From Peptostreptococcaceae bacterium (GTDB taxonomy: Bacteria > Bacillota > Clostridia > Peptostreptococcales > Peptostreptococcaceae): 24,000 bases of DNA. Shown here piece by piece: positions 4,669 to 22,851 of the stretch; within the stretch, counting starts at the first letter, position 1, and every line of letters begins with the position of its first letter. A program made the position numbers and the translations under genes. Location of the stretch: contig CABIZO010000001.1 in assembly GCA_902363255.1 (NCBI GenBank), positions 449,394 to 473,393 of the forward strand, in the 5' to 3' direction. The notes below the pieces were generated by a model. That model was not told the DNA's origin. It was given only the letters and a program-made list of their open reading frames with translations, and made no database searches.

Positions 4669-5571
4669 TTGAAATTACAAAAACCAGGAATGAGAAATAT
4701 AAAAACAGGAATAGGAGTTATGATCTGTGTACTAGTTGGGTATTTCCACATAGTCGATAACACTTTTTTTGCTGCAGCGGCTTGTATAGTTTGTATGCAG
4801 ACAACTGTAAAAAGTTCTGTGACAGTTGGATTTAATAGATTAAAAGGAACTTTCATAGGAGGATTAATAGGATTTTTATTTGTGCTTATTAAACCAGGAA
4901 ATCCGATATTATCTTGTTTAGGAGTTATCACAACTATTTATATTTGTAATATTTTAAAAATAAACAAATCCATAACTATTGCGTGTGTTGTTTTTTGTGC
5001 TATTCACTTAAGCGTGGGAGATGCAAATCCAATAGCTTATTCAATATCTAGAACATTAGATACATCAGTAGGGGTTATTATAGGAGTTGCAGTAAATTAT
5101 TATATATTTAGACCTAATTATTTAAAAAGTATATACAAAGAAATAAGAGTTATTGAAAAAACATCAATTAAACTATTGAAAAGTGAAATAGAAAAAGGTG
5201 TTCATGCAGATAATTCATCTTTGAAGAAAGAAATTACAAGACTAGAGGGATTGTATAAAAACTTTTTAGAGGAACTAGAGTATAGTAACGAAGAAGTTGA
5301 TGATGAAGAAATAAATAATGTCATTAAACGATGTAAACATATCTATCTACATCTTCAAATTTTAGAGCAAATGAAAGATAAATGTTACTTAAATAAAGAA
5401 AATTATATTAAGTCAAAAAGCATATATGATACTTTACCTAAGGGTATTGAAATTAAAGATGATAGAAGCGCTGTTTATAATTATCATATTAGTGCCATTA
5501 TTGACAATATTAATGAAATACATGGAATAGAAGAAAATAATAATGAAAGTGACTTAATCGCAACAGTTTAA
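4669..5571 (+). CDS. Aromatic acid exporter / FUSC-like (ArAE_1, YgaE-type) membrane protein with a C-terminal cytoplasmic helical domain
   Basis: N-terminal MRNIKTGIGV followed by about 5 TM helices, then a charged helical C-terminal half, as in the Bacillus YgaE/YqjA-type family. The TTG start at 4669 has GGGAG 9 nt upstream; the ATG at 4690 is an alternative start. Confidence 0.6.
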   Translation: MKLQKPGMRNIKTGIGVMICVLVGYFHIVDNTFFAAAACIVCMQTTVKSSVTVGFNRLKGTFIGGLIGFLFVLIKPGNPILSCLGVITTIYICNILKINKSITIACVVFCAIHLSVGDANPIAYSISRTLDTSVGVIIGVAVNYYIFRPNYLKSIYKEIRVIEKTSIKLLKSEIEKGVHADNSSLKKEITRLEGLYKNFLEELEYSNEEVDDEEINNVIKRCKHIYLHLQILEQMKDKCYLNKENYIKSKSIYDTLPKGIEIKDDRSAVYNYHISAIIDNINEIHGIEENNNESDLIATV

Positions 5572-6801: not shown

Positions 6802-7049
6802 ATTTATAGCCCCAAAATCTTCTTATGTTGTGTACAATTCTATCAATTTAAATATATTTTATTGTACAAGATGTTTAATTAAGTTAAAATAAAAATGAAA
6901 TTCTCTATATGATTTTTTTTCATATCTTATTATAATATTAAACAGGGACAAGAAACAAAGTGTATTTTGAAATGATTAAAAATAATATATTTTTATACTA
7001 TTATACTATTATACTAATTATGTTAATCAGACAACAAAGGAGACGAATC

Positions 7050-10000
7050 GTGAAAAAAATTAAATATACATTAGTTCTTTTAACAATTTTAATGTGTATA
7101 TTTCCTAACAATATATATGCATCTAAAATGATGAATTTTGAAAACTTAACAATAGAAGATGGATTATCTCAAGCAACTGCAGAGACGATAATTCAAGATA
7201 GTGAAGGATATATATGGATAGGTACAAATGATGGATTGAATAGATATAATGGCTCGGATATAAAAGTATTTAAAGATAATGATGAAGATCAAAATAGTAT
7301 AATTAGTAATTATATAACGGCATTAGCGGAAGATAATGATAGAAATTTATGGGTTGGAACAGATGAAGGTTTGAGCAAAATAAATTTAGATGACTACACT
7401 ATAAATAATTATCGTTATTATGATAATGATAAAAAAACTCCATATTCTGCTGTATTAAGCCTTTATGTAGATGAAGATGGAAATCTTTATATGGGAGGTA
7501 ATACTGGTGTTTATATTTATAATAAAAGCGAAGATAAATTTGATATGATACTAGGATTAAAAGATGATTTAAGTATCAGAAACGTTTTTAGTATAAATAA
7601 GGATGAAAATCAGAATCTATGGATAGGTACAGATAAAGAGTTATATAGAATAGATTCAAAAGCGAAAAAAGCTATACCTTATGCCAATGAAAATATAAAT
7701 ACAAAAGATTGGGGAAAAATTTATTCTATTTTATTTGACGATGAAAATAATATGTGGATAGGGACTGCAGAAAAGGGATTAAAGAAAATAGATATAGAAA
7801 CAAATGAAATTCAATCATTTGTAGCAGATGAAAGTGATGATAACAAATTAAAATCAAATAGTGTAAGAAAGGTATTGCAAGATAGTAGCGGAAATATCTG
7901 GGTTGCAACAGAAAAAGGTCTTAGCAAATACAAGGGCGACGATAAGTTTATTACTTTTTTAAATAAAAGCTATGATAACAGTAGCTTAGCTAATGATATA
8001 GTGTACACACTTATGGAGGATAATACTGGATTAATTTGGGCGGGTACTTATACAGGTGTAAGTATATTCGATTCGAGGAATAAAATCGAAATATATAAAA
8101 ATGATCCCAGTGATGAAAACTCTTTAAGTGATAATGTAGTAATGGGTGTATATGAAGATGAGCAAGGTTTATTATGGATAGGAACAAGAGATAAAGGCTT
8201 AAATATAATAAATCGAGAAAATGAGACGATTAAGCATATTTATGAAGGTGACTCTGATTATGATTTAAGTACAAATTCTATAAGTATTATCACAGGAAAA
8301 GATAATATAATATGGGTCGGTACTAGAAATGGTGTAAATAAAATAAACAAACAAGATATGACCATAGAAAAATATACTACAGAAGATGGATTAATAGATA
8401 ATAATATCAAAGGTTTACTTATTGATAGTAGCAATCGTTTATGGATAGGTACACCAATAGGACTTAGCATCTTAGATATAGATACGAATACAATAACTGA
8501 TATGACTGAAAGGTTGATAGAAGCTGGTATAACAGATCCATATATTCAAGAAATTTATGAAGATAGAGACGGGATTTTTTGGATAGGAGGATATACAACT
8601 GGAGGTTTAATTAGATTTGATCCGAGAAATAACACTATAAAAACGTATAATAGCTATAAAGAAGATAAAGAAAAAGATGAAATGATTATAAGTAGTATAA
8701 GGGATATCGTAGAAGATGAAAATTCTAATCTATGGATAGGAACTAATGACGGACTATTATACTTTAATAAATCAGATAATTCATTTAAAAAGTATACAGA
8801 AAAAGATGGACTAGCAAACAATATAGTTTATCAAATATTAGTAGATGAAAATAAAAATTTATGGATGAGTACTAATAATGGTATATCCAAATTTGATATA
8901 AAAAATAATAGGTTTACCAATTTAAGCAGTACAGATGGACTTCAAAGTAATGAATTTAATGGAAACTCAGCATATAAATGTAAAAATGGAAATTTATTGT
9001 TTGGTGGAATAAAAGGGCTAAATATTTTTAATCCTAAAGATGTAATGGAGAAAAATTATGAAGCAAAAGTTAAATTTGATAGTTTTGAAGTTGAAGGTAG
9101 ACATTATAACAATATTGATGGTGAAATTTTTGAATATGATAAAAACTTTATTAGAATAAAATATTTTACAACTGATTATAGAAAGAACAATAATACTCAA
9201 TATTATTATAAACTAAAAGGTTCAACATATGATTGGGTGCCTGTCACAAACAATGAAGTTATATTTGAGAATTTATCATCAGGCAAGTATACATTTATAA
9301 TAAAGTGTAGAAATAATAATGGAAAAATGAGTGAAGAAAATAGTGTTAGTTTTACTATAAAACGACCTTTTTGGATGAGTGGATGGGCTGTAACTTTATA
9401 TATGCTAATAATTATTGCAATAATATATAATGGTATTAATAAAATGAAGCAATTAGATAAATTAGTCAATAGAAAGACAAGAGAGTTAAATAATGAAATG
9501 GAAAAAAATAAAATACTTTTTGACAGGTTATTAGAAGCAGAAAGAAGTAAAAATAACTATTTTATTAATTTATCTCATGAACTTAGAACGCCACTGAATG
9601 TAATAAACTCAATAGAACAATTAATAAGTAGTTTTTGTAAATCAGATAAGGAATTGACAAAAGATAAGTTAGAAAACTATATGGATATTATGAAAAATAA
9701 TACTGATAGATTATTGAACTTAATAAATAATATAATAGATACATCCAAAATTGAAAATGGAAAGTATAAGCTTAATAAATGTGAAAATAATATAGTTTAT
9801 CTAGTTGAGGAAGCAACATTAACTCTAAAAGAAAGTATAGAATCATCTGGAAAAGAACTTATATTTGATACTGATGTTGAGGAAAAAATAATTAACTGCG
9901 ATAAATATGATATAGAAAGATGTATAATTAACTTGGTCGGTAATGCACAAAAGTTTACGCCAACAGGTGGAAGTATAAGTGTCAATATTGAAGATTTAAA

Positions 10001-10235
10001 TGATTTTGTAAGGATTACTGTGGAAGATACAGGAATTGGAATAGACAAACAATATCATGATATAATATTTGACAGGTTTAACCAGATTGTAGATGAGCAT
10101 GGTGAAAATAAAGGTGGAAGTGGTTTAGGACTCACAATTACTAAACACATAATAGATCTTCATGGTGGAAATATCTATGTGGAAAGTGAAAAGAATAAAG
10201 GAACTAAATTTATAATTAATTTACCAATAAAATAA
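7050..10235 (+). CDS. Sensor histidine kinase with double beta-propeller (Reg_prop repeats) plus Y_Y_Y ectodomain; no receiver domain
   Basis: Signal/anchor VKKIKYTLVLLTILMCIFPNNIYA. About 14 repeats of the W(I/V)GTxxGL motif, enough for two 7-bladed propellers. Then QYYYKLKG (Y_Y_Y domain), a TM helix WAVTLYMLIIIAIIY, HisKA H-box LSHELRTPLN, and HATPase motifs GNAQKFT, DTGIGI, GGSGLGLTI. I place the start at the GTG at 7050 (AAGGAG 7 nt upstream); the track ORF extension from 6960 has no RBS. Confidence 0.9.
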   Translation: MKKIKYTLVLLTILMCIFPNNIYASKMMNFENLTIEDGLSQATAETIIQDSEGYIWIGTNDGLNRYNGSDIKVFKDNDEDQNSIISNYITALAEDNDRNLWVGTDEGLSKINLDDYTINNYRYYDNDKKTPYSAVLSLYVDEDGNLYMGGNTGVYIYNKSEDKFDMILGLKDDLSIRNVFSINKDENQNLWIGTDKELYRIDSKAKKAIPYANENINTKDWGKIYSILFDDENNMWIGTAEKGLKKIDIETNEIQSFVADESDDNKLKSNSVRKVLQDSSGNIWVATEKGLSKYKGDDKFITFLNKSYDNSSLANDIVYTLMEDNTGLIWAGTYTGVSIFDSRNKIEIYKNDPSDENSLSDNVVMGVYEDEQGLLWIGTRDKGLNIINRENETIKHIYEGDSDYDLSTNSISIITGKDNIIWVGTRNGVNKINKQDMTIEKYTTEDGLIDNNIKGLLIDSSNRLWIGTPIGLSILDIDTNTITDMTERLIEAGITDPYIQEIYEDRDGIFWIGGYTTGGLIRFDPRNNTIKTYNSYKEDKEKDEMIISSIRDIVEDENSNLWIGTNDGLLYFNKSDNSFKKYTEKDGLANNIVYQILVDENKNLWMSTNNGISKFDIKNNRFTNLSSTDGLQSNEFNGNSAYKCKNGNLLFGGIKGLNIFNPKDVMEKNYEAKVKFDSFEVEGRHYNNIDGEIFEYDKNFIRIKYFTTDYRKNNNTQYYYKLKGSTYDWVPVTNNEVIFENLSSGKYTFIIKCRNNNGKMSEENSVSFTIKRPFWMSGWAVTLYMLIIIAIIYNGINKMKQLDKLVNRKTRELNNEMEKNKILFDRLLEAERSKNNYFINLSHELRTPLNVINSIEQLISSFCKSDKELTKDKLENYMDIMKNNTDRLLNLINNIIDTSKIENGKYKLNKCENNIVYLVEEATLTLKESIESSGKELIFDTDVEEKIINCDKYDIERCIINLVGNAQKFTPTGGSISVNIEDLNDFVRITVEDTGIGIDKQYHDIIFDRFNQIVDEHGENKGGSGLGLTITKHIIDLHGGNIYVESEKNKGTKFIINLPIK

Positions 10236-10236
10236 A

Positions 10237-10268
10237 TAAAAAAGCTGCTATTTAGCAGCTTTTTTTTG
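10237..10268. terminator. Bidirectional terminator shared by the kinase gene (+) and the ThrE-like operon copy 1 (-)
   Basis: AAAAAAGCTGCTATTTAGCAGCTTTTTTTT: the palindrome AGCTGCT/AGCAGCT is flanked by an A-run and a T-run. The TAG stop of the minus-strand gene (10248-10250) lies in the hairpin. Confidence 0.75.
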
Positions 10269-10703
10269 TGAAATCATAAGCATTGTTTTAAATAAAGCAG
10301 TTACAATAAGTACTCCCATTGCTAAAGATCCAGAAATAAATAGTACATCAGCACCTTTTGCTATGGCAGCGCTATAGTTATTTTGAACTAGATAAAGCAT
10401 AGTATTGTACATACCAAGTCCTGGTACCAGTAGAATAATTCCTGGTATTGTAAAAACAATTGCAGGTTGTTTTAATTTTCTAGCAAATAGCTCACTGATA
10501 AGCGAAACTAAAAGAGCAGCAATAAAGTTTGACATTATATTATTGTTTGTACCGTTCATTAAAAAATAATATACTGCCCAACCTATTCCACCAACAAATC
10601 CACTTGGAATTAAGGTAGATTTAGGTGCTTTTAAGAATATAGCAAAACCGATAGTTGAAATAAAAGAATATATAAAATGCATGAAAACAGGCATATTAGT
10701 CAT
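10248..10703 (-). CDS. Threonine/serine exporter family protein, small subunit (ThrE_2 / YjjB-like), copy 1
   Basis: 151 aa with 4-5 TM helices, collinear with the paralog at 11627..12082 (MTNMPVFMHFIYSF vs MTDMPLYMHFIYSF). The start is set at 10703 by that alignment; TAATG overlaps the upstream gene's stop by 1 nt, with GGAGG inside the upstream gene. Confidence 0.8.
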   Translation of the reverse strand: MTNMPVFMHFIYSFISTIGFAIFLKAPKSTLIPSGFVGGIGWAVYYFLMNGTNNNIMSNFIAALLVSLISELFARKLKQPAIVFTIPGIILLVPGLGMYNTMLYLVQNNYSAAIAKGADVLFISGSLAMGVLIVTALFKTMLMISQKKAAK

Positions 10704-11491
10704 TATAAAACACCTCCAAGTCTTAACCAAACATCTAAAACTATACCTACGCCACAGGCGATACTGACAGCGGTAACAACGGCGTCAAAAGCACGAGCAA
10801 CACCAGACATTAAATCTCCAGAAATTAAATCCCTTATACCTTTGATGAAAGAAACTCCTGGAAGTAATGGCATAATAGATCCAACTACTAACATGGTAGG
10901 TGCTGATATTATATTTAACTGAGTTAGTATTACACCTATAAAAGCTATAAAGGATGATGCAATTAAACTGGCAAAAGCAGGTATACTACTTAATTCTATT
11001 ATTTTATTGTAAATTTTTACAGCTAAGATAGAGGCTATAAATGTAGATACAAATGTAGGAATATTATTTCCTTCAACTAAACCTGCAAAAATAGCAGAAC
11101 CAATACCTGTACTAATATATTGGGTTACATCAGAATAAGAATTAGCACGATTAATACTTTTTATTTCTTTCATAGCTTCTTCTACAGTTATTTCCGTATT
11201 ACTAACAAACTTTCTAGAAAAGTCATTTAATAAGGAAATTTTCTGTAAGTCTATAGACCTAGATTTTATAGACTTTAAAAATGAATAACCATCAAATTTA
11301 TAATCTGATATTATAATAACAGTAGGTGATGTAAATACATTTACATGATTGTATCCTCTTGAATTACAAACTCTAAGAACTGTATCTTCTACACGATAGG
11401 TTTCTGCTCCGTTAATTAACATAAGCTCACCTAAAAATAAGGCTAATCCTAGCACTTCTTTTTTATTAGCAGTATTAAATTCAACTTTCAT
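10703..11491 (-). CDS. Threonine/serine exporter family protein, large subunit (ThrE / YjjP-like, DUF1212-type), copy 1
   Basis: 262 aa. Conserved motif GAETYRVEDT near the N-terminus, a hydrophobic C-terminal half, and RBS GGAGG 8 nt upstream of the ATG at 11491. Confidence 0.8.
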   Translation of the reverse strand: MKVEFNTANKKEVLGLALFLGELMLINGAETYRVEDTVLRVCNSRGYNHVNVFTSPTVIIISDYKFDGYSFLKSIKSRSIDLQKISLLNDFSRKFVSNTEITVEEAMKEIKSINRANSYSDVTQYISTGIGSAIFAGLVEGNNIPTFVSTFIASILAVKIYNKIIELSSIPAFASLIASSFIAFIGVILTQLNIISAPTMLVVGSIMPLLPGVSFIKGIRDLISGDLMSGVARAFDAVVTAVSIACGVGIVLDVWLRLGGVL

Positions 11492-11567
11492 TAATTTTCC
11501 TCCGTAGATGATAAATAAATATTATTATGCAAAATAGTTAGATTTATACAAAATATAAACCTAGAGT

Positions 11568-11597
11568 AGTATATAATATTTACAAAAAGAAAGTCAA
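11568..11597 (-). promoter_or_regulatory. Candidate sigma-A promoter for ThrE-like operon copy 1
   Basis: The minus strand reads TTGACT (11597-11592), about 17-18 nt of spacer, then TATACT/ATATAC. It lies between the copy-2 terminator and the copy-1 start codon. Confidence 0.35.
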
Positions 11598-11616
11598 CAA
11601 GATAGTTGAATATAAG

Positions 11617-11646
11617 AAAAAAGCTACTATTTAGTAGCTTTTTTTA
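11617..11646 (-). terminator. Rho-independent terminator of ThrE-like operon copy 2
   Basis: AAAAAAGCTACTATTTAGTAGCTTTTTTT: the palindrome AGCTACT/AGTAGCT has a T-run on the minus-strand 3' side. The TAG stop of gene 11627..12082 is in the loop. It is homologous to the hairpin at 10237-10268. Confidence 0.7.
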
Positions 11647-12082
11647 TAGAGATTATATGTAATGTTTTGACTAGAGAAGTTATAACCAAAATTCCCAACG
11701 ATATAGCCCCACCAACAAATAGTACATCAGCACCTTTTGCAATAGCATTGCTATAGTCATTTTGAACTAAATAAAGCATGGTATTATACATACCAAGCCC
11801 TGGAACTAATGGAATAATACCTGGTATTATAAAAATGATTGCAGGTTGTTTTAATTTTCTAGCTAGAATCTCACTAATATAAGAAACTAATAAGGCAGCT
11901 ATAAAATTTGCTAAAATATCATTTCCAGTTAATTGTACTAAGTAATAAAATACTGACCATCCAACTCCACCAACAAATCCACTAGATATAAGTGTTGTTT
12001 TAGGTGAGTTTAGAAAAATAGCAAAACCTACAGTAGCAAAAAAAGAATATATAAAATGCATATACAAAGGCATATCTGTCAT
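11627..12082 (-). CDS. Threonine/serine exporter family protein, small subunit (ThrE_2 / YjjB-like), copy 2
   Basis: 151 aa, high identity to copy 1 across the full length. Its ATG overlaps the upstream stop by 1 nt (TAATG). Confidence 0.8.
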   Translation of the reverse strand: MTDMPLYMHFIYSFFATVGFAIFLNSPKTTLISSGFVGGVGWSVFYYLVQLTGNDILANFIAALLVSYISEILARKLKQPAIIFIIPGIIPLVPGLGMYNTMLYLVQNDYSNAIAKGADVLFVGGAISLGILVITSLVKTLHIISIKKATK

Positions 12083-12870
12083 TATAAAGTTCCTCCTAAT
12101 CTAAGCCAAATATCTAGAATAATAGCAACACCACAGGCTATACTTACAGCAGTAACACCAGCATCAAAAGCACGGGCAACACCAGAGATTAAGTCACCTG
12201 CAATTAAATCCCTAATCCCTTTAATAAAGGATACACCTGGAAGCAAAGGCATAATAGAGCCAACTATTAATAAAGCAGGTGTTGGAATAATGTTTATCTG
12301 AGATAATACTACACCTACAAGGGCTATAAAAGTTGATGCAACTAAAGAAGAAAATGCATGGATAGTACTGATTTTCATTATTTTTTTATAAATCATAACT
12401 GCTAATATAGAGGTAATAAATGTAGAGATAAAAGTAGGAATATTGTTTCCTTTTAGTAAAGTTGCAAAGAAAGCAGAACCTATTCCAGTAAAAAAACTTA
12501 AAACTAATGGATTATAAGATGTAGTACTTATTATTTCTTTTAATTCTTTCATAGAATCCTGTACTGTTAAATCAGGATTGGATACATATTTTCTAGAAAA
12601 ATTATTTAACATGGAAATTTTATTTAAATCTATAGATCTAGATTTTATACTTCTCATAAATGAATAACCATCAAATTTATAATCAGATATAATTATAACT
12701 GTTGGAGAGGTAAATACATTTATATGATTATAGTTTCTAGATTTACATATTCTAATGATAGTATCTTCTACACGATAAGTTTCTGCACCATTAATAAGCA
12801 TTAATTCACCAATAAACAATGCTAGTCGAAGTATATTTTTTTTGTTTTCTAGTTTAAAATCATCTTCCAT
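12082..12870 (-). CDS. Threonine/serine exporter family protein, large subunit (ThrE / YjjP-like), copy 2
   Basis: 262 aa, exactly the length of copy 1 and gap-free when aligned by eye (roughly two thirds identical). RBS AGGAGG upstream of the ATG at 12870. Confidence 0.8.
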   Translation of the reverse strand: MEDDFKLENKKNILRLALFIGELMLINGAETYRVEDTIIRICKSRNYNHINVFTSPTVIIISDYKFDGYSFMRSIKSRSIDLNKISMLNNFSRKYVSNPDLTVQDSMKELKEIISTTSYNPLVLSFFTGIGSAFFATLLKGNNIPTFISTFITSILAVMIYKKIMKISTIHAFSSLVASTFIALVGVVLSQINIIPTPALLIVGSIMPLLPGVSFIKGIRDLIAGDLISGVARAFDAGVTAVSIACGVAIILDIWLRLGGTL

Positions 12871-14687: not shown

Positions 14688-14769
14688 ATTAAAACCTCCT
14701 TGAAAAATTATATTATTCATATTTTAACATAAATATAGAATTTCATGAAGAAATTATATAATATAGAAG

Positions 14770-14785
14770 AAGGACATATGTCCTT
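14770..14785. promoter_or_regulatory. Perfect 16-bp palindrome AAGGACATATGTCCTT in a divergent promoter region; candidate Crp/Fnr-family operator
   Basis: Read directly from the sequence. The core AGGAC-N4-GTCCT has the same 5-N4-5 geometry as FNR (TTGAT-N4-ATCAA) sites. It lies 60-75 bp upstream of the Crp/Fnr gene ATG at 14845. Confidence 0.45.
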
Positions 14786-14844
14786 TTGATTTATTTTAAT
14801 AATTATTAAAATAAAATAGAATACAAAACTTAGGAGTAAGTGAA

Positions 14845-15540
14845 ATGTATGACAACTCATTATACAAGGAAATAGGAAATAAAAAGGTTAAAGAATTTAT
14901 AAGAAAAATACCAAAGGATATTAAGGATAATTGTACTTTAAGAAGAATTGAAAAAGGAAAGATTGTAGTACTTAAGGAAGAAGAAATTAAAAAAATATAT
15001 ATTCATTGTAAAGGTCAAATGAGAGTAAGAAATGAATTTGAAAATGGATTTATATATGATTTTGCAAGTATTGAGCCCATATCTTATATTGGAGTTATGG
15101 AAGTTATGGCAAATAAACAGTTTTATTCTTCCACATTACAAACTACCACTGATAGCATAATTCTTGAAGTTTATAAAAATGATTTTATTGATTGGGTTAA
15201 TGAGGATCATAAATTAGCGTTAGATATGCTACATTTTGTATCAAATAAAATGTATGAACAATCTTTAAAAACAGGAGAAGTTCTAGCTTATCCAGCCATA
15301 GGTATTTTGATAAATTATTTAATTAATATTTTTGAAAATGAAGAAAAAGGTGAGGTTGTATTAGCAAAGAAAAGAGAAGAAATAGCATCGATTTTAGGAT
15401 TTTCAGTAAGAACAGTTAATAGAAATTTGAAAATTTTAAAAGATGAAAATCTAGTTTTTTCAGATAGAAAAGGCATATGCATTACTAAAGAACAATGTGA
15501 AAAGCTATATAAAAAATTAGATTCAATAAAAAATAAATAG
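14845..15540 (+). CDS. Crp/Fnr family transcriptional regulator
   Basis: 231 aa with an N-terminal cNMP-binding-like beta-roll region and a C-terminal HTH (REEIASILGFSVRTVNRNLKILKDENLV). RBS AGGAG is 8 nt upstream. There is no E. coli FNR-like N-terminal Cys cluster. Confidence 0.85.
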   Translation: MYDNSLYKEIGNKKVKEFIRKIPKDIKDNCTLRRIEKGKIVVLKEEEIKKIYIHCKGQMRVRNEFENGFIYDFASIEPISYIGVMEVMANKQFYSSTLQTTTDSIILEVYKNDFIDWVNEDHKLALDMLHFVSNKMYEQSLKTGEVLAYPAIGILINYLINIFENEEKGEVVLAKKREEIASILGFSVRTVNRNLKILKDENLVFSDRKGICITKEQCEKLYKKLDSIKNK

Positions 15541-15561
15541 CCAAATATGGGGGACATGTGA

Positions 15562-17058
15562 ATGAATCAAGTATTAGAAATAATAAAAAATGAGACTTTA
15601 ACTTATAATCAACAAGTATTACAATTGGCAGGATATGCTGGAAATAGTATAGAAGTTTTTGATATAGATGAGGAAACTAAAAAATTATTAGATGAACAAA
15701 TAATATGTACAATGTTTGAAGGGAACACTCCTTACAGACCAAGATATGTTATACCAAATTATGAAGTATTAATGGAAAAAGGATGTGAATTCTTAGGTTT
15801 AGAAGTACCAACTGATATCTGGGAAGCAACAAATAGTTTATTAATATTATATAAACATGTACCATCAATAACATCATACCCAGTTTACTTAGGAAACTTA
15901 GATACACTTTTAAATCCTTTTGTAAAAGATGAAGAAGAAGCATATAAAGCTATAAAATTATTCTTAAAGCATGTTGATAGTGCATTAACTGATTCATTTG
16001 TTCATGCGAATATAGGACCAGTTGATACTGTAGCTGGAAGACTTATACTTAAGGCTATGACAGAATTAGAATGTGCAATGCCTAACTTAACAGTTAAATA
16101 TGATAAAGATATAACTTCAAAAGAATTTGCCAAGCTTTGTGCAAGTACAGCTTTAGTTACTGCTAAGCCAAGTTTTGCTAATCACAAAATGGACACAGTA
16201 GACTTTGGAACAGAAAACTATGCTTTAGCTTCTTGCTATAATGGATTTATAGTAGGTGGTGGGGGATATACCCTAGTAAGATTAGTACTAAACAGATTAG
16301 CTGAAACTGCAGAGTCTGTTGAAGATTTTTTAGATAATAAATTACCATTTGCAACTGACAAAATGCTTAAATATATAGATGAAAGAATTAAATTCTTAGT
16401 TGAAGAAGCTGCATTCTTTAAATCAAGTTTCTTAATAAAAGAAGGATTTATTAAAAAAGAATTATTTACAGGAATGTTTGGTATGGTTGGTCTTGCAGAA
16501 GCAGTTAACCATTTACTAAATGCAACTAATCAAGAAGATAGATTTGGTTATGGAAAAGAAGCAAATGAATTAGGATTAAAAATAGTAGAAAAACTTAATT
16601 CCATAGTAACTTCATATAAATCACCTTATGTGGGAGATGCATATAAAAATAGTCATGTTATGCACTGTCAAGTTGGTATAGATACTGATACAGGAATATC
16701 TCCAGGATGTAGAATACCAGTTGGTGAAGAGCCAGAATTATTTAAACATATATTACAATCTGCACCATTCCACAAATACTTCTTCAATGGAATAGGAGAT
16801 ATATTTGTATTTGAAGATACTTATAAAGAAAATCCAGAAGCAATTATAAATGTTATAGATGGAGCATTTAATTCAGGTATAAGATATATATCAGTTTACT
16901 CTGGTGGATGTGATGTAGTTCGTGTTACTGGATACCTTGTTAAAAAATCAGAAGTAGCACAACTAGAAAGTGGAAAAGCAGTTAAAAATAATGCAACTGT
17001 ATTTGGAATGAATGCTAAAAATGGAGCCAAAGCATTTGATAGAAGGCTGAGAGACTAA
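15562..17058 (+). CDS. yjjI: YjjI-family glycyl radical enzyme (substrate unknown)
   Basis: 498 aa. C-terminal glycyl radical fingerprint DVVRVTGYLV, with the Gly457 codon GGA at 16930-16932. A dedicated activase gene follows immediately. The size and gene pairing match the E. coli YjjI/YjjW pair. RBS GGGGGA is 7 nt upstream. Confidence 0.75.
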   Translation: MNQVLEIIKNETLTYNQQVLQLAGYAGNSIEVFDIDEETKKLLDEQIICTMFEGNTPYRPRYVIPNYEVLMEKGCEFLGLEVPTDIWEATNSLLILYKHVPSITSYPVYLGNLDTLLNPFVKDEEEAYKAIKLFLKHVDSALTDSFVHANIGPVDTVAGRLILKAMTELECAMPNLTVKYDKDITSKEFAKLCASTALVTAKPSFANHKMDTVDFGTENYALASCYNGFIVGGGGYTLVRLVLNRLAETAESVEDFLDNKLPFATDKMLKYIDERIKFLVEEAAFFKSSFLIKEGFIKKELFTGMFGMVGLAEAVNHLLNATNQEDRFGYGKEANELGLKIVEKLNSIVTSYKSPYVGDAYKNSHVMHCQVGIDTDTGISPGCRIPVGEEPELFKHILQSAPFHKYFFNGIGDIFVFEDTYKENPEAIINVIDGAFNSGIRYISVYSGGCDVVRVTGYLVKKSEVAQLESGKAVKNNATVFGMNAKNGAKAFDRRLRD

Positions 17059-17060
17059 TC

Positions 17061-17873
17061 ATGGCTTTAGTTAATAAAATAATTCCATTTTCTTGTATAG
17101 ATGGTCCAGGAAATAGAACGGCGATATTTTTCCAAGGATGTAACTTTAAGTGTACTTACTGTCATAATCCAGAAACTATAAATAAGTGTGTAAACTGTGG
17201 AAAATGTGTTAAGGTTTGTCCTGTAAATGCTTTAAATATTGTTGAAAAAAAAGTTATTTGGAATGATAAAAAATGTGTGGCGTGTGATGCATGTATTAGA
17301 GAATGTGATCACTTATCGACTCCGAAAACTAAGGATTATTCAGTTGATGAATTATTTGATGAAATTAAACAAGTTAGTCCTTTTATTCAAGGAATAACTG
17401 TTAGTGGAGGAGAAGCCACACTAAATATAGACTTTCTAACACAATTATTTAAAAAAGTTAAAGAAGAACTTGGCCTCACTTGTTTTGTTGATACTAATGG
17501 AAGTATTGATTTAACACAACATGAAGAATTCGTAAATTTAACAGATAAGTTTATGATAGATATTAAAAGTATGGACAAAGAAGAGCATACAAAGATAACT
17601 GGATTAAATAATGATATTGTAATTAAAAACTTAAAATATTTATTAGATTTAGATAAGGTCTATGAAATTAGAACAGTAATAGCTCCTAATTTAGATAATA
17701 AAAATACAGTAAGAGAAGCATCTAAGATTATTAATAATAGATGTAAGTATAAGTTTAATATATATAGACATCATGGAGTGAGAAAAGAAGGATTAGATTT
17801 CCACGGAAGTGATAGCCCTTGCGAAGAAGAAATTAATAAATGTTATAAAATATATAATGAAAGTATTTTATAG
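17061..17873 (+). CDS. yjjW: YjjW-type glycyl radical enzyme activase (radical SAM)
   Basis: N-terminal CIDGPGNRTAIFFQGCNFKCTYCHN with the CX3CX2C motif at 17139-17162. Two further ferredoxin-like clusters, CVNCGKCVKVCP and CVACDACIREC. The ATG lies 2 nt after the GRE stop codon. Confidence 0.85.
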   Translation: MALVNKIIPFSCIDGPGNRTAIFFQGCNFKCTYCHNPETINKCVNCGKCVKVCPVNALNIVEKKVIWNDKKCVACDACIRECDHLSTPKTKDYSVDELFDEIKQVSPFIQGITVSGGEATLNIDFLTQLFKKVKEELGLTCFVDTNGSIDLTQHEEFVNLTDKFMIDIKSMDKEEHTKITGLNNDIVIKNLKYLLDLDKVYEIRTVIAPNLDNKNTVREASKIINNRCKYKFNIYRHHGVRKEGLDFHGSDSPCEEEINKCYKIYNESIL

Positions 17874-17878
17874 AAAAA

Positions 17879-17911
17879 AAGCACATTGATATTTTTATCA
17901 GTGTGCTTTTT
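17879..17911 (+). terminator. Rho-independent terminator ending the GRE operon
   Basis: GCACATTGATA (17881-17891) pairs with TATCAGTGTGC (17896-17906) with one G-U pair, a TTTT loop and a T-run after it. Confidence 0.7.
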
Positions 17912-18014: not shown

Positions 18015-19085
18015 ATGAAAGAAAAGATTAGTATATTAAATGTAATGAAATTTGCAGGTGCTTTTATAGCTTTTATTATTGGCTCGGGATTTGCAACAGG
18101 ACAGGAAATTATGCAATTTTTTACATCTAATGGATTGTATAGCTTAGTATCTATAGTTATAAGTTTAATAGTATTTACATATTTCGGAGCAACGGTAATG
18201 TCTTGTGGATTTGACTATGGAAGTTCGGAAAGATACAGACCATATAAATACTTTTGTGGAAATAAAGTAGGAGTATTTTATGAGTACTTTGTTCCAGTTT
18301 TATTGTTTATAAGTGTTGTAGTTATGATTTCAGGGGCTGGGGCAACTCTACAAGAATATTATGGACTAAATTATTATGTGGGTTGTGCTATGATGACAGT
18401 ATTAGTACTTATTGCTTTTATTTGTGGACTTGATAGTCTTATTAATATTATTGGACTTATTGGTCCGGTTATAGTTATATTTTCTTTGATTGTGGGATTT
18501 ACGATTTTATTTCAAAATTTAGATGGATTAAAAAATATTTCGCAAACAATGATGGAGGTTGATCTAACAAAAGCAGGTGGAAATTGTGTAAAAAGTGGAG
18601 TATTATATGCATCATATAATATGGTAAGTGGATTATTTTTCTTTACATCTCTTGGAAATAGTGCAGATACTAGAAGAGAAGCTAAATATGGAGCCATTGT
18701 AGGTAGTTTAGCATTGATGATTGTTATTTTAGTTATGAATTTTGCTCTATTATCAAAAATAAAAGATATTTATAATTTATCCATACCAACTTTATATTTT
18801 GCAAAATCAATATCGACTATATTTGGTAGAGTTTTTTCAGTTGTACTATTATGCGGAATTTTTTCTACAGCAGCACCAAACTTTTGGACTGTTTGTGATA
18901 AGATCTCCAAGGGAGGTAAGTATAATTCCAAAGTTATTGCTATAATCATATCTATTTTAGCATTTTTTTGTGGTTTATTCCCATTTGAAAAATTAGTGGG
19001 AAATGTGTATCCATTTACGGGGATATTAGGCGTTGTATTATTTATACTTATACTTTTTAAACAAATTAGCAAGAGAATTATATAA
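18015..19085 (+). CDS. YkvI-family membrane protein (putative permease)
   Basis: About 10-11 TM helices. The N-terminal motif GSGFATGQEIMQFF resembles the GAGFATGREIVEFF motif I recall from B. subtilis YkvI. RBS GAGGAG upstream. Confidence 0.65.
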   Translation: MKEKISILNVMKFAGAFIAFIIGSGFATGQEIMQFFTSNGLYSLVSIVISLIVFTYFGATVMSCGFDYGSSERYRPYKYFCGNKVGVFYEYFVPVLLFISVVVMISGAGATLQEYYGLNYYVGCAMMTVLVLIAFICGLDSLINIIGLIGPVIVIFSLIVGFTILFQNLDGLKNISQTMMEVDLTKAGGNCVKSGVLYASYNMVSGLFFFTSLGNSADTRREAKYGAIVGSLALMIVILVMNFALLSKIKDIYNLSIPTLYFAKSISTIFGRVFSVVLLCGIFSTAAPNFWTVCDKISKGGKYNSKVIAIIISILAFFCGLFPFEKLVGNVYPFTGILGVVLFILILFKQISKRII

Positions 19086-19094
19086 TATTTACAT

Positions 19095-19139
19095 AAAAAA
19101 ATAAGTATAACTTTTGCATAAGTTATACTTATTTTTTTA
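19095..19139. terminator. Bidirectional terminator between convergent ykvI-like and lysR-like genes
   Basis: AATAAGTATAACTT (19100-19113) is perfectly complementary to AAGTTATACTTATT (19120-19133), with a 6-nt loop, an A-run before and a T-run after. It overlaps the LysR gene's stop codon. Confidence 0.75.
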
Positions 19140-20040
19140 TTAATAAATCTTTCATAAAATCAGATGTTTCATATTTTTGTAAAATATCTTTTAATGTAAT
19201 AATCGAAGGACTCATTATTTTGTCTTTATGATAAACAAGTTTAAAAGATCTTTTTAGCGGATTTAAATCAGTATTAATTATATGAATTCTTCCGTTTATA
19301 ATATCTTCTTCAAATGTATGTATAGATAAAAGTGATAAACAATCATCATCTAAAATAGATCTTCTAATGGTATCTGTTGAACTAGCTTCACATACTAGTT
19401 GTATATGGATTTTATATTTATGTAAAATTTGTTCAAAAAATTCTCTTGTACCACTACCATCCTCCCTCATGGCAAATCTTTGATTTTCCAAATCATATAA
19501 AGTTATTTTTTCTTTAGTTAAAATATGATGGGTATTATTACATAATAGAACAAGATAATCATCGATTACAGGAATAGTAACTAAATCCTGAGAATGGATA
19601 TCCCCTTCCACAATAGCTATATCTAGTTCAGAACTTAATAGTTTTTTCTCAACCATAGAAGTATTATTAACATAGGCATAGGTATTTACCCTAGGAGCGA
19701 TATCGTGGAATTCTTTTATTATTTTAGACAAAAGACAAGTTCCAACAGTTACAGAAGCTCCAATTCGTAAATTTTCTATGTGAAGATTGTCATTCATTTT
19801 TTTCTCCAAATTATCAAATTGTTCTACTACTTGAGTGGCATAGGTGAAAAGTTCTTTGCCAAATGGTGTTATATATAATTTTTTAGATAGTCTATCAAAT
19901 AGTTTTCGGCCATAGTGCTCTTCTAATTCGCGAATAGCCTGGCTTACTGTTGGCTGAGATATATATAATCTTTGTGCAGCAATGCTCATTTTTCCAGCTT
20001 TGGCAACTTCAATAAAGATTCTTAAGTGTCTAATTGTCAT
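19129..20040 (-). CDS. LysR family transcriptional regulator
   Basis: N-terminal wHTH MTIRHLRIFIEVAKAGKMSIAAQRLYISQPTVSQAIRELEEHYGRKLFDR, 303 aa. It is divergent from the operon it probably controls. Confidence 0.9.
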   Translation of the reverse strand: MTIRHLRIFIEVAKAGKMSIAAQRLYISQPTVSQAIRELEEHYGRKLFDRLSKKLYITPFGKELFTYATQVVEQFDNLEKKMNDNLHIENLRIGASVTVGTCLLSKIIKEFHDIAPRVNTYAYVNNTSMVEKKLLSSELDIAIVEGDIHSQDLVTIPVIDDYLVLLCNNTHHILTKEKITLYDLENQRFAMREDGSGTREFFEQILHKYKIHIQLVCEASSTDTIRRSILDDDCLSLLSIHTFEEDIINGRIHIINTDLNPLKRSFKLVYHKDKIMSPSIITLKDILQKYETSDFMKDLLIKK

Positions 20041-20060
20041 AAAATATCCCCCTTATTTCT

Positions 20061-20109
20061 ATCAATAAATATAATTAATTGATATTGATTATCTATAGGT
20101 TTTACCTAT
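20061..20109. promoter_or_regulatory. Candidate LysR-type binding sites (T-N11-A boxes) in the divergent intergenic region
   Basis: ATCAAT-N11-ATTGAT at 20061-20083, with a second tandem ATTGAT at 20084-20089. ATAGG-TTTTA-CCTAT at 20095-20109 contains T-N11-A (TAGGTTTTACCTA). Confidence 0.5.
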
Positions 20110-20151
20110 GTTTTTAATAAGATAATCTCACTTTTAATAGTATATCACAAG

Positions 20152-20160
20152 TGATACAAT
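20152..20160 (+). promoter_or_regulatory. Candidate extended -10 element for the CoADR-rhodanese operon
   Basis: TGATACAAT is one mismatch from the TGnTATAAT consensus (-10 hexamer TACAAT), and the -35 is weak. The T-N11-A box centre (about 20102) would lie about 65 bp upstream of the implied TSS. Confidence 0.4.
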
Positions 20161-20227
20161 GAAATTGAATGATAAGGAAAATAATGTAAATATATATTTA
20201 TAGATAGATAAAAAGGGGTTGATAAGT

Positions 20228-21862
20228 GTGAAAGTACTTATTATTGGAGGGGTTGCAGCAGGAACTAAGGTTGCAGCAAAACTTAAACGTGAAGATAGAA
20301 ATTTAGATGTGACTATTCTTACTAAAGGGAAAGATATATCTTATGCAGGATGTGGTCTTCCTTATTATGTAGGAAATGTTATTAAAGAGAAAGAGCAGTT
20401 GATTGTAAATACTCCAGAAAAATTTGAAAAGTTAACAGGTGTAAAAGTTATAACAGAAATGGAAGTTATAAAAGTTAATGCTGAAGAAAAAATAGTGGAT
20501 GCAGTAAGTTTAGAAAGTGATGAAAAGTTTGTTTATGAATACGATAAATTAGTAATAGCTAGTGGAGCTTCTCCTATAAAACCACCAGTTGAAGGTTTAG
20601 ATTTAAAAGGAGTTTTCTTCATGAGAACACCAGAAGATGCAATTCAATTAAGAGAATCAATTGAAAAAGGTAAAGTAAAAAGAGCTGTAGTAGTAGGAGC
20701 AGGATTTATAGGATTAGAAGTTGCAGAAAATATTGCTAAACAAGGAGTAAAAGTATCTGTTATAGATATGGCAGAGCATGTACTTCCTGGATTTGATGAA
20801 GAAATGAGTGAATATATAGAAAATCATTTGGCTGAAAATGGAATAATGACTGCTACAGGCGTAAAAATGGAAGGAATTATAGGAACTGATAGAGTTGAAA
20901 AAGTCAAAACTTCTAGACGTGCGATGAAGGCAGATACAGTAGTTTTATCTATTGGTATTCGTGCGAATACTCAATTTTTACAAGATAGTAAAATAGAGCT
21001 TATGCCAAATAAAACTATAAAAGTAAATGAATATTTACAAACAAATATAGAAGATATATATGCAATAGGTGATTGTGCTTGTGTAATAAATAAAATTACA
21101 AAAGCGCCACAATGGTCACCAATGGGATCTTCTGCAAATATAGAAGGTCGTATTACTGCTAAAAATATACTAGGGAAAAATAAGCCTTATGGAGGTGTTC
21201 TTGGTACAGCAGTTTGTAAATTACCAAACTTGAATACAGGAAGAACAGGACTTACAGAAGCAGCAGCAAAAGAAGCAGGATATAATTCAATAAGTGTTAT
21301 TTCTGTTGTAGATGACAAAGCTCATTATTATCCAGGAGCAGGTAGTTTTATAGTTAAAATGATAGCCGACAGAGATACTAAAAAATTACTAGGTTTACAA
21401 GTACTTGGAAAGGGAGAAGTAGATAAAATGGTTGATATAGCAGTTACTGCAATATCATTAAACGCATCAATAGATGATTTAGAAAACTTAGATTTTGCTT
21501 ATGCACCACCATTTTCTACAGCAATTCATCCATTTGCTCATACTTTAAATATATTACAAAATAAAATAAATGGAGAATTTGAGACGATAACTCCTGTAGA
21601 GTTTAAAGAAGGTAAAGCTGAAGATTATAAGATAATTGATGCGTCTATATCACCAACTTTGAGAACTGCTCCATACGTAGATTTAACAAAAGTGGAGGGG
21701 GTACTTCCAGAATATAATACTAATGAGAAATTACTATTGGTATGTGCAAAGGGTAAACGTGCATATATGCTTCAAAATCGTTTAAAATTCTATGGATACA
21801 AAAATACAAAAGTTCTTGAAGGTGGATTAACTTTCAATGAAATAGATGAAGATGAAGAATAA
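20228..21862 (+). CDS. CoA-disulfide reductase / NADH-dependent persulfide reductase-like flavoprotein with a C-terminal rhodanese domain
   Basis: FAD motif VLIIGGVAAG. Redox-active Cys in SYAGCGLPYYVG, as in CoADR/Nox/Npsr. Second dinucleotide motif VVVGAGFIGLE. C-terminal rhodanese loop VCAKGKRA, with its Cys codon at 21743-21745. I prefer the GTG at 20228 (AAGGGG 9 nt upstream) over the TTG at 20219. Confidence 0.85.
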   Translation: MKVLIIGGVAAGTKVAAKLKREDRNLDVTILTKGKDISYAGCGLPYYVGNVIKEKEQLIVNTPEKFEKLTGVKVITEMEVIKVNAEEKIVDAVSLESDEKFVYEYDKLVIASGASPIKPPVEGLDLKGVFFMRTPEDAIQLRESIEKGKVKRAVVVGAGFIGLEVAENIAKQGVKVSVIDMAEHVLPGFDEEMSEYIENHLAENGIMTATGVKMEGIIGTDRVEKVKTSRRAMKADTVVLSIGIRANTQFLQDSKIELMPNKTIKVNEYLQTNIEDIYAIGDCACVINKITKAPQWSPMGSSANIEGRITAKNILGKNKPYGGVLGTAVCKLPNLNTGRTGLTEAAAKEAGYNSISVISVVDDKAHYYPGAGSFIVKMIADRDTKKLLGLQVLGKGEVDKMVDIAVTAISLNASIDDLENLDFAYAPPFSTAIHPFAHTLNILQNKINGEFETITPVEFKEGKAEDYKIIDASISPTLRTAPYVDLTKVEGVLPEYNTNEKLLLVCAKGKRAYMLQNRLKFYGYKNTKVLEGGLTFNEIDEDEE

Positions 21863-21897
21863 TAATTAAAAAGGATTATATAAAAGGGGGAAAAATA

Positions 21898-22851
21898 ATG
21901 GCAACATTAACAATTAGCAAAGAAGATGAAAAAAGAGTAAAAGCTCTAGGATTTTTAAGTAATAAAGGTACTGATAATTTCTCAGCAAGAATAATAACTA
22001 AAAATGGGAAAATAACAGCAGCTCAACAAAAGCGTATAGGTGATGCAGCTGAGTTATTTGGGAACGGAATAGTAACATTTACAACTCGTCTTACAGTAGA
22101 AGTACAAGGAATACCATATGAAAAAATCGAAGATTTTAGAGCATATATAGCTGAAGAAGGTCTTGAAACTGGAGGAACAGGATCAAAAGTACGTCCAGTG
22201 GTATCATGTAAGGGAACTACTTGCCAATATGGTTTAGCAGATACTTTTGAATTATCAGAAGAAATACATGAAAGATTTTATAAAGGTTATGCAAGTGTAA
22301 GGCTACCTCATAAATTTAAAATAGCAACTGGAGGATGTCCAAATAACTGTGTAAAGCCAGATTTAAATGACTTGGGAATAATAGGTCAATATATACCTAA
22401 CTTTGACGAAGATTCTTGTAATGGATGTAAAAAATGTGCTATAGAAAAACTATGTCCTATAAATGCTTGTAAGGTAGTAGATGGTATATTAGAAATAGAC
22501 GAAGAACTATGTAATCACTGTGGTCGTTGTGTAGGAGCATGTCCATTTGATGCCATAGAAGATGGAACATATGGATACAAAATTTACATTGGTGGTAGAT
22601 GGGGTAAAAAAGTTAACCATGGTATAGCTTTAAATAAGATATTTACTAGCAAAGAAGAAGCATTAGATGTAATAGAAAAAGCCATATTATTATATAGAGA
22701 ACAAGGAAAAACAGGAGAGCGCTTTGCAAATACTATAGAACGTTTAGGGTTTGAAAATGTAGAAAAACAATTATTAGCAAATGATTTACTTGAGAGAAAA
22801 GAAGAAATAATAAATGCAGAGCTTCATCTAGTTGGAGGGGCTACTTGTTAG
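21898..22851 (+). CDS. Nitrite/sulfite reductase-like siroheme/[4Fe-4S] protein with an inserted 2x[4Fe-4S] ferredoxin module (AsrC / small Dsr-like)
   Basis: Cys pairs SCKGTTC and GGCPNNC sit where the siroheme-coupled cluster motif lies in sulfite reductases. They are followed by CNGCKKCAIEKLCP and CNHCGRCVGACP. RBS AGGGGG upstream, 35 nt after the preceding stop with no terminator between the genes. Confidence 0.75.
   Translation: MATLTISKEDEKRVKALGFLSNKGTDNFSARIITKNGKITAAQQKRIGDAAELFGNGIVTFTTRLTVEVQGIPYEKIEDFRAYIAEEGLETGGTGSKVRPVVSCKGTTCQYGLADTFELSEEIHERFYKGYASVRLPHKFKIATGGCPNNCVKPDLNDLGIIGQYIPNFDEDSCNGCKKCAIEKLCPINACKVVDGILEIDEELCNHCGRCVGACPFDAIEDGTYGYKIYIGGRWGKKVNHGIALNKIFTSKEEALDVIEKAILLYREQGKTGERFANTIERLGFENVEKQLLANDLLERKEEIINAELHLVGGATC

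Follow-up and report, generated by a model that had tools for sequence, protein, structure and literature searches.

What does a glycyl radical enzyme (GRE) do when neither its family nor its gene neighbourhood names a substrate, and by what signal is it switched on? A three-gene operon raises this question at positions 14845-17873 of a stretch of 24,000 nucleotides (the window) from a Peptostreptococcaceae bacterium (assembly GCA_902363255.1, contig CABIZO010000001.1, positions 449,394 to 473,393). In it a Crp-family regulator gene is followed by yjjI, encoding a GRE, and by yjjW, encoding a radical S-adenosylmethionine (radical-SAM) activase. The sequence makes it highly probable that this is a self-contained, positively autoregulated operon comprising an effector-responsive CRP-like activator, the YjjI enzyme and the YjjW activase, which would act by the steps set out below. 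Among what is new here are the assignment of Cys225 as the relay residue of YjjI, a regulator dedicated to the operon together with its predicted operator, and, at other clostridial loci, a candidate leader RNA; the YjjI family itself had already been catalogued. The features on which the argument rests are these:

14770-14785, predicted operator palindrome AAGGACAT/ATGTCCTT, 16 bp, perfect, followed by TT
14807-14812, forward strand, predicted -10 hexamer TAAAAT of the operon promoter
14845-15540, forward strand, Crp-family regulator gene, 231 aa, with a beta-roll like those that bind cyclic nucleotides and a C-terminal helix-turn-helix
15562-17058, forward strand, yjjI, YjjI-family GRE, 498 aa
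15706-15708, forward strand, codon of YjjI Cys49
16234-16236, forward strand, codon of YjjI Cys225, within SCYN
16930-16932, forward strand, codon of YjjI Gly457, within RVTGY
17061-17873, forward strand, yjjW, YjjW-family radical-SAM activase, 270 aa, with Radical_SAM, Fer4_12 and Fer4 domains
17139-17162, forward strand, CX3CX2C motif of YjjW
17187-17306, forward strand, two ferredoxin-like CX2CX2CX3C motifs of YjjW
17876-17911, forward strand, intrinsic terminator hairpin with a 16-bp stem and a 4-nt loop, then UUUUUAUAU

The three open reading frames share the forward strand and are separated by 21 nt (regulator to yjjI) and 2 nt (yjjI to yjjW). Ribosome-binding sites lie at 14832-14836 for the regulator (AGGAG), before yjjI (GGGGG) and, for yjjW, within the 3' end of yjjI (GAAGG/GAGAG). 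The terminator hairpin was passed over by a simple terminator scan and found by folding, with a minimum free energy of -20.5 kcal/mol and z = -8.15; none of 200 shuffled sequences was equally stable. With a single predicted promoter and a single predicted terminator, the three genes are read as co-transcribed. A preliminary description of the window, made from the sequence alone, had pointed to the tight spacing and to a terminator, and the reading-frame coordinates and the folding agree with it.

Both enzymes belong to curated families. YjjI scores 728 bits against TIGR04040 (cut-off 498.3), covering model positions 1-497 of 497, and 704.5 bits (E=6.7e-212) against PF11230, formerly DUF3029, while YjjW scores 357.1 bits against TIGR04041 (cut-off 250.2). 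Thus the search with hidden Markov models (HMMs) that the preliminary description had proposed gave matches to TIGR04040, TIGR04041 and PF11230 that pass the curated thresholds. Its equation of the pair with E. coli yjjI-yjjW (b4380-b4379) is likewise borne out: over their full length the E. coli proteins are 40% (YjjI) and 38% (YjjW) identical to those of the window, they share RVTGY, SCYN and every cysteine motif of the activase, and their genes form a similarly tightly coupled pair. The window belongs to a Terrisporobacter; its protein identity to T. muris DSM 29186 is 94%. To place the operon more widely, we compared 82 loci, the 80 genome loci among them being those most similar to the window. 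YjjW adjoins yjjI in 82/82, usually with overlapping stop and start codons; reading frames in the loci were called with a crude caller, and the presence of YjjW was checked with tblastn in five of them.

Residue conservation, counted over 197 YjjI-family sequences, singles out the probable radical machinery. Gly457, which lies in the C-terminal region in ...DVVRVTGY..., is invariant (197/197), as are Ser224, Cys225, Tyr226 and Asn227. Ser224-Cys225 aligns with Cys418-Cys419 of pyruvate formate-lyase (PFL), and we identify Cys225, for the first time, as the predicted radical-relay (thiyl) cysteine of YjjI. Two other cysteines are somewhat less constant: Cys49 is kept in 190 of the 197 sequences, the other seven having His or Ser, and Cys383 in 192. 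Since E. coli YjjI has Ala at the latter position, Cys383 is not the essential thiyl residue. Invariant basic residues include R59, R61, H99, H148, K202, R240, R275, H368, R384, H396, H404 and R454. The preliminary description had placed the RVTGY fingerprint and its Gly codon correctly; of its two thiyl candidates, the Cys of LASCYNGF (Cys225) stands and that of ISPGCRIP (Cys383) falls. It had also held that the zinc-ribbon cysteines of the class III ribonucleotide reductase (RNR) NrdD are missing, and indeed no CxxC...CxxC zinc-ribbon occurs near the C-terminus, the last 120 residues holding only C383 and C450.

On this sequence evidence the active-site motifs of YjjI match none of the three textbook GRE mechanisms, because the protein has Ser-Cys rather than Cys-Cys, Cys-Tyr-Asn rather than Cys-x-Glu, and neither a strictly conserved NrdD-type second cysteine nor a zinc-ribbon. 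Cys-x-Glu we take to be the Cys-loop motif, supplying the general base, of GRE 1,2-eliminases and decarboxylases.

The activase resembles one GRE division more than the other. Its cysteines form the radical-SAM motif (C27/C31/C34) and two ferredoxin-like motifs (C43/46/49/53 and C72/75/78/82), just as the preliminary description had read them. Among other activase models, YjjW is nearest to those of the eliminase activases, namely the activating enzyme (AE) of HypD (161 bits) and CutD (131 bits), and the NrdG models give 52.6-96.4 bits, under their cut-offs. NrdG differs in that YjjW has the two extra ferredoxin-like motifs; the auxiliary ferredoxin domain is missing from both PFL-AE and RNR-AE (PMC13450708). 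Its motifs make YjjW a three-cluster activase, a kind that characterises the PFL-like division.

Could YjjI then be a PFL-like enzyme in a shortened scaffold, either a 2-keto-acid formate-lyase or a 1,2-eliminase/dehydratase? Apart from the kinship of YjjW with the eliminase activases, the best sequence-level structure matches are PFL and YbiW, to which residues 162-232 (the PNLT strand and the Cys loop) align best. In these two respects, Cys-loop alignment and three-cluster activase, the protein is like the PFL-like GREs (CutC, HypD, YbiW/PflD). It is, however, some 260-300 residues shorter than they are, it reaches 20.1 bits against PF02901, under the cut-off of 24.3, and it has no Gly_radical (PF01228) match at E<=0.01. 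The invariant Ser-Cys-Tyr-Asn puts Ser-Cys in place of Cys-Cys and Asn in place of Glu at Cys+2, PFL-type structures rank under NrdD in fold comparison, cover less of their own length and give target-normalised template-modelling (TM) scores of 0.4-0.49, and no microcompartment, transporter or aldehyde-processing genes lie nearby. We regard a shortened PFL-like enzyme as improbable. As YjjI lacks a PF01228 match and falls under the PF02901 cut-off, surveys seeded with these domains may overlook it.

The fold leads in a different direction. An AlphaFold2 model of YjjI built from 61 sequences (pLDDT 92.2, pTM 0.91) returned only NrdD proteins among its top 20 PDB fold matches in Foldseek, from P. 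copri, S. thermophilus and phage T4, with E values down to 2.8e-17, query-normalised TM scores of 0.67-0.76 and identities of 14-16%; a library of viral structures returned RNRs alone. As modelled, YjjI is a ten-stranded GRE barrel whose fold is nearest to the NrdD core. The preliminary description had called the protein far shorter than PFL-type GREs; this holds against PFL, but the nearest fold is that of the NrdD core. Residues 259-358 (GLAEAVN...SEKANELGLKII) align best with P. copri NrdD, and Pfam NRDD matches residues 174-445 at 33.7 bits. Residue-level mapping onto E. coli NrdD by hhalign was unusable, at 8% probability. With its PFL-like Cys loop and the NrdD-like segment after it, YjjI shows a mosaic of similarities that would suit a lineage standing between the two recognised GRE divisions or apart from both. 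New here, too, is the combination of an NrdD-like barrel with a three-cluster activase.

The resemblance to NrdD/NrdG goes beyond the nearest solved fold. The core is of similar size, the glycyl radical lies near the C-terminus and the thiyl cysteine on a finger loop, and both systems are two-gene modules without conserved metabolic neighbours; moreover, E. coli yjjI adjoins deoCABD and has been put in a deoxyribonucleoside module (Hu et al. 2009, PMC2672614). YjjI might accordingly be a streamlined class III RNR that has lost its ATP-cone and zinc-ribbon and supplies deoxyribonucleotides anaerobically. Yet it scores 23.7 bits against TIGR02487 (cut-off 326.35) and 24.9 bits against NF005497 (cut-off 764), both zinc-ribbon and ATP-cone are absent, and it carries RVTGY, not the RVCGY of NrdD (PMC13450708). 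Cys49, which would have to serve as second cysteine, is replaced by His or Ser in 7 of the 197 sequences, and YjjW is not of the single-domain NrdG type. Furthermore, E. coli retains nrdDG as well, and YjjI, unlike NrdD, occurs in no genuine phage record among the 50,697 searched. The deo link itself dissolves on comparison: in E. coli yjjIW is divergent from deoCABD, an adjacency seen neither in Microbulbifer nor in Haliovirga nor in the other 80 genome loci. A streamlined RNR is thus very unlikely. Placement in a characterised GRE class was the outcome that the preliminary description had named as fatal to its proposal; NrdD is indeed the nearest class by fold, but the NrdD model scores, the zinc site, the RVCGY motif and an NrdG-type activase are all wanting, and neither the PFL nor the eliminase comparisons place YjjI in those classes.

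If the enzyme resists classification, its control offers another approach. The regulator contains PF00027 (33.5 bits, cut-off 27.5) and PF13545 (33.9 bits, cut-off 27). Its profile is nearest to E. coli CRP (E=8e-26 over residues 27-213), FNR following at ~1e-7, and the CRP equivalog model NF008732 gives 32.2 against a cut-off of 266. Of the residues by which CRP contacts cAMP, Arg82 aligns with a near-invariant Tyr in the regulator and Glu72 with Val, so that binding of cAMP is unlikely. No FNR-type cysteine cluster is conserved among 15 regulator orthologues, and the recognition helix reads xRTVNR against RETVGR in CRP.

Linkage between regulator and yjjI holds in both directions. In 14 of the 82 loci an orthologue is the gene directly 5' of yjjI and runs in the same orientation; these loci belong to Peptostreptococcaceae, to a Lachnoclostridium/Acetivibrio/Velocimicrobium group and to an Oceanispirochaeta. 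At one more locus the orthologue lies six genes upstream. Conversely, in metagenome contigs that carry a regulator homologue of at least 42% identity and have room downstream, yjjI is directly next in 14/14, compared with 0/7 for paralogues of at most 34% identity. The regulator thus appears to be dedicated to the yjjI operon, and seems to control this one operon, its own gene included. In this, the dedicated Crp/Fnr-type regulator of the preliminary description is upheld.

Its putative operator is the palindrome at 14770-14785. The sequence is single-copy in the window, as the preliminary description had noticed; in a control, 19 of 100 shuffles matched it once or more often with 3 mismatches or fewer, so the single copy is not significant alone, and the significance of the palindrome lies in its conservation across loci. 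Every one of the 15 genome loci with the regulator has the consensus a(a/g)GGACAyrTGTCCtttt 5' of it, and so do 10 of the 11 metagenome loci whose upstream sequence is long enough. The other 67 yjjI loci (1.15 Mb) hold no exact copy and a single copy with one mismatch. Of the 22 matches to the 10-nt core GACAyrTGTC in 1.55 Mb, 20 lie in the promoters of yjjI operons.

The geometry of the site suggests what it does. A -10-like hexamer begins 28-31 nt past the dyad centre in 16/16 loci, whereas the ATG may follow that centre at anything from 42 to 90 nt. Counting the hexamer as -12 to -7 puts the dyad centre near -41.5, some 41 bp 5' of the predicted start, which is the geometry expected of class II Crp/Fnr activators. 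The dyad G and A stand 4.5 and 3.5 bp from the centre, as in the TGTGA (CRP) and TTGAT (FNR) sites. With class II activators of the CRP/FNR type the window system thus shares the two-domain architecture, the G/A positions and the spacing, and it differs from them in its operator, GGACAT/ATGTCC against TGTGA-N6-TCACA (CRP) or TTGAT-N4-ATCAA (FNR). Similar information comes from pHIC of Haliovirga abyssi (Fusobacteriota; L108 5227-6001), where a divergently transcribed Crp-family gene shares the intergenic region with yjjI. Its product is only ~20% identical to the window regulator (family HMM E=1.5e-10), and the region holds TGTGACATATGTCATTT, the operator core, at matching spacing from a TATACT hexamer. 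By this sequence comparison Haliovirga is an independent instance of the operator core.

That the palindrome is instead a terminator-like hairpin or a chance palindrome in AT-rich DNA, with the Crp-family gene a mere neighbour, is hardly credible: a terminator scan does flag a hairpin and T-run at 14768-14787 on both strands, and uniqueness in the window is by itself not statistically significant, but the central bases CAyrTG, equivalent to the loop, are conserved as strongly as the arms, the motif accompanies the regulator in 15/15 loci whatever gene lies upstream and is essentially absent elsewhere, its spacing is fixed to the hexamer and not to the ATG, its G and A occupy the positions that they have at CRP and FNR sites, the core persists in Haliovirga beside a divergently oriented regulator gene, and in the window it has nothing to terminate because both flanking genes point away.

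Our preferred reading is therefore that of an autoregulated operon with its own activator, and it would work as follows. Once a small-molecule effector is bound, the regulator dimer would bind the dyad and would then activate the operon, its own gene included, in class II Crp/Fnr fashion. Under anaerobic conditions YjjW would cleave S-adenosylmethionine, and the 5'-deoxyadenosyl radical would take a hydrogen from Gly457. The glycyl radical would oxidise Cys225 to a thiyl radical, which would in turn abstract a hydrogen from the substrate. E. coli differs here, having no adjacent regulator and relying on global FNR, whereas the window has a dedicated CRP-like regulator with an operator.

Several points weigh against this reading, which is drawn throughout from sequence and predicted structure. 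Only ~18% of the sampled loci have the regulator beside yjjI, which makes it a lineage-specific solution, and Proteobacteria are under-sampled among the 80 genome loci. The -10 element was recognised by its match to a consensus, in DNA that is AT-rich. As to the chemistry considered below, the idea of an anionic substrate is based on the types of conserved residues, whose position in the pocket is a prediction, and the division among reaction types is a judgement rather than a measurement.

How widespread is the pair, and does its genomic setting reveal a substrate? Relatives are encoded in at least 591 species-representative genomes, from Clostridia, Fusobacteria, Spirochaetes, Victivallales and Proteobacteria, and yjjI-yjjW is found in 5424 of 5426 complete E. 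coli genomes. Among 1.84 billion proteins the family comprises about 20 full-length representatives at 50% clustering, and since members from Clostridia and E. coli are still 40% identical, one conserved function seems likely for all. On plasmids, yjjIW was found only on chromids or mis-filed chromosomes. The only matches to YjjI in the phage collection (AGRM01000005.1, AFYI01000007.1, OR850962.1 and OR845353.1) turned out to be host chromosomal DNA filed as phage, namely 501-kb Salmonella contigs and unannotated fragments of 3-4 kb, with an enterobacterial yjjI ~40% identical to the query.

The neighbourhood comparison across the family that the preliminary description had recommended was run on the 82 loci, and the activase proved the only constant partner. 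Of the 133 proteins that immediately flank yjjIW, at most 5 share any one Pfam family. PsuK/PsuG, dihydrofolate reductase, an ECF S-component, a sigma factor and isochorismatase-type hydrolases were considered as partners and rejected, as they recur within related genomes only. Isochorismatase-type cysteine hydrolases lie in or beside yjjIW in Caloramator (L054 and L056 12318-12989) and in Microbulbifer (L107 9375-10202). A partner shared by the two genera can be set aside, since their proteins are without significant similarity (BLASTP E=0.88) and the recurrence is probably coincidence.

The literature supplies regulation and little else. E. coli yjjIW is directly activated by FNR (PMC3688515), Yersinia yjjIW is anaerobically induced (PMC3792023), and a computational guess from co-expression assigns the E. 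coli genes a role in nitrogen metabolism (PMC3228777). A June 2026 review of GREs recognises seven classes and, for the superfamily as a whole, two divisions, the class III RNRs and the PFL-like enzymes; it does not mention the YjjI family (PMC13450708). We found no biochemical study of YjjI or YjjW in 8 million full texts, subscription-only papers not included, and no solved structure of a family member in the PDB. RefSeq names both genes by family alone, and no function or substrate is given in RefSeq 2026, NCBIfam 2026, Pfam or the PDB. The preliminary description was thus right that no substrate had been established. It went too far in proposing an undescribed biochemical system: YjjI is a catalogued orphan family that is annotated automatically and is core in E. 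coli, and the window operon is an ordinary member of it. The pair is core in E. coli and widespread, yet neither its reaction nor its structure is in the literature or the PDB, and genome context, the usual route to a GRE substrate, is uninformative for yjjIW, a negative result that is new here.

Because genome context gives nothing, the most useful result of this analysis is the finding of two lineage-specific control devices. The first is the regulator with its operator. The second is a conserved leader of ~90 nt, directly 5' of yjjI, in 13 of the 82 loci, all of them regulator-less; Tepidibacter, several Clostridium species and Acidaminobacter are among the genera that bear it. It was found in the following loci:

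L045 (C. tagluense), positions 4829-4920, conserved leader directly 5' of yjjI
L030, L031, L035, L038, L040, L049, L050, L055, L076, L079, L029 and L042, the same leader

Its promoter, TTGCAA-N17-TATAAAAT, is followed by an invariant TTAACAGCA and a hairpin of variable length; the 3' part consists of AUGUUAAACAACC, then (U)GUGGUUAAAAU, then the Shine-Dalgarno sequence. Besides the hairpin, the leader contains single-stranded blocks that do not vary. A covariance model of the leader matches at this position only, in 1.44 Mb searched on both strands. In the first helix double changes keep the pairing in 4 of 8 pairs, 0 of 500 shuffles attain its covariation score, and helix cells are paired in 96% against 14-37% in slid controls. 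Folding energies of single sequences are not significant (z -0.4 to -2.2). Alternative pairings could expose or sequester the ribosome-binding site. Rfam 15 gave no match to the leader, and a search with 14 whole loci and one leader at E<=10 showed no known riboswitch 5' of yjjI; the cobalamin riboswitch, T-box and glycine riboswitches seen in the loci belong to other genes. On this covariation evidence we regard the leader as an unclassified candidate cis-regulatory RNA, not an established one.

At one locus, that of Clostridium sp. CF012 (L035 9826-9965), an insertion of ~130 nt splits the leader, with AAATGTGGTTAAA duplicated on its flanks. The covariance model matches both halves, and the insertion may be a small mobile element with its target-site duplication.

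What, then, might YjjI act on? The absence of a dedicated transporter or downstream enzyme in the 82 genomes, the apparent isofunctionality of the family and the richness of its invariant residues in Arg, Lys and His together suggest that the substrate is probably a common intracellular metabolite that is anionic, being phosphorylated or carboxylated. The inducer of the operon is probably either the substrate itself or a compound closely related to it. As for the reaction, our rough apportioning gives the largest share to chemistries other than those named here, nearly as much to a redox-neutral C-C or C-X cleavage or rearrangement, far less to an NrdD-like reduction and the least to a 1,2-elimination.

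A wider proposal can be advanced only tentatively, namely that YjjI represents a third GRE division, neither PFL-like nor an RNR, whose reaction on a central metabolite would be of a type outside the seven classes, and that the regulator and the leader RNA each sense its substrate or product. More speculative still, yjjIW may be an oxygen-independent substitute for an oxygen-dependent housekeeping step, as are NrdD, HemN and UbiUV, an idea that would fit the FNR control, the core status and a leader control of the end-product type.

An activator of one operon, CRP-like and with its operator in place, and a candidate leader RNA are both handles that can be screened with metabolites for the inducer. 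The regulator/operator pair and the leader thereby make the question of YjjI's role more directly testable.

The remainder of the window shows no evident operon link to these genes. It encodes a PduO-type adenosyltransferase, an Mrp/NUBPL protein, a rhodanese, a peroxiredoxin, a large sensor kinase, two ThrE exporter pairs, a LysR regulator, a disulfide oxidoreductase and an AsrC-like sulfite reductase. A polytopic membrane protein of 356 aa (18015-19085, forward strand), without a Pfam or NCBIfam match at E<=0.01, begins just past the terminator; it and an upstream ArAE gene are found in Terrisporobacter loci only and so are not part of the system. A sensor histidine kinase of 1091 aa (6960-10235, forward strand) carries Reg_prop repeats of the beta-propeller type together with a Y_Y_Y domain and resembles the kind usual in Bacteroidetes hybrid two-component systems; it showed no receiver domain. 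At 19129-22851 the LysR gene is divergent from genes for a pyridine-nucleotide-disulfide oxidoreductase of 547 aa and an AsrC-like sulfite reductase subunit with ferredoxin motifs; this LysR is nearest to the selenium-metabolism-associated type, at 195 bits, under the cut-off of 250. Finally, a split ThrE-type exporter pair (262 aa and 160/151 aa) occurs in two tandem copies at 10248-12870 on the reverse strand, apparently a local duplication.

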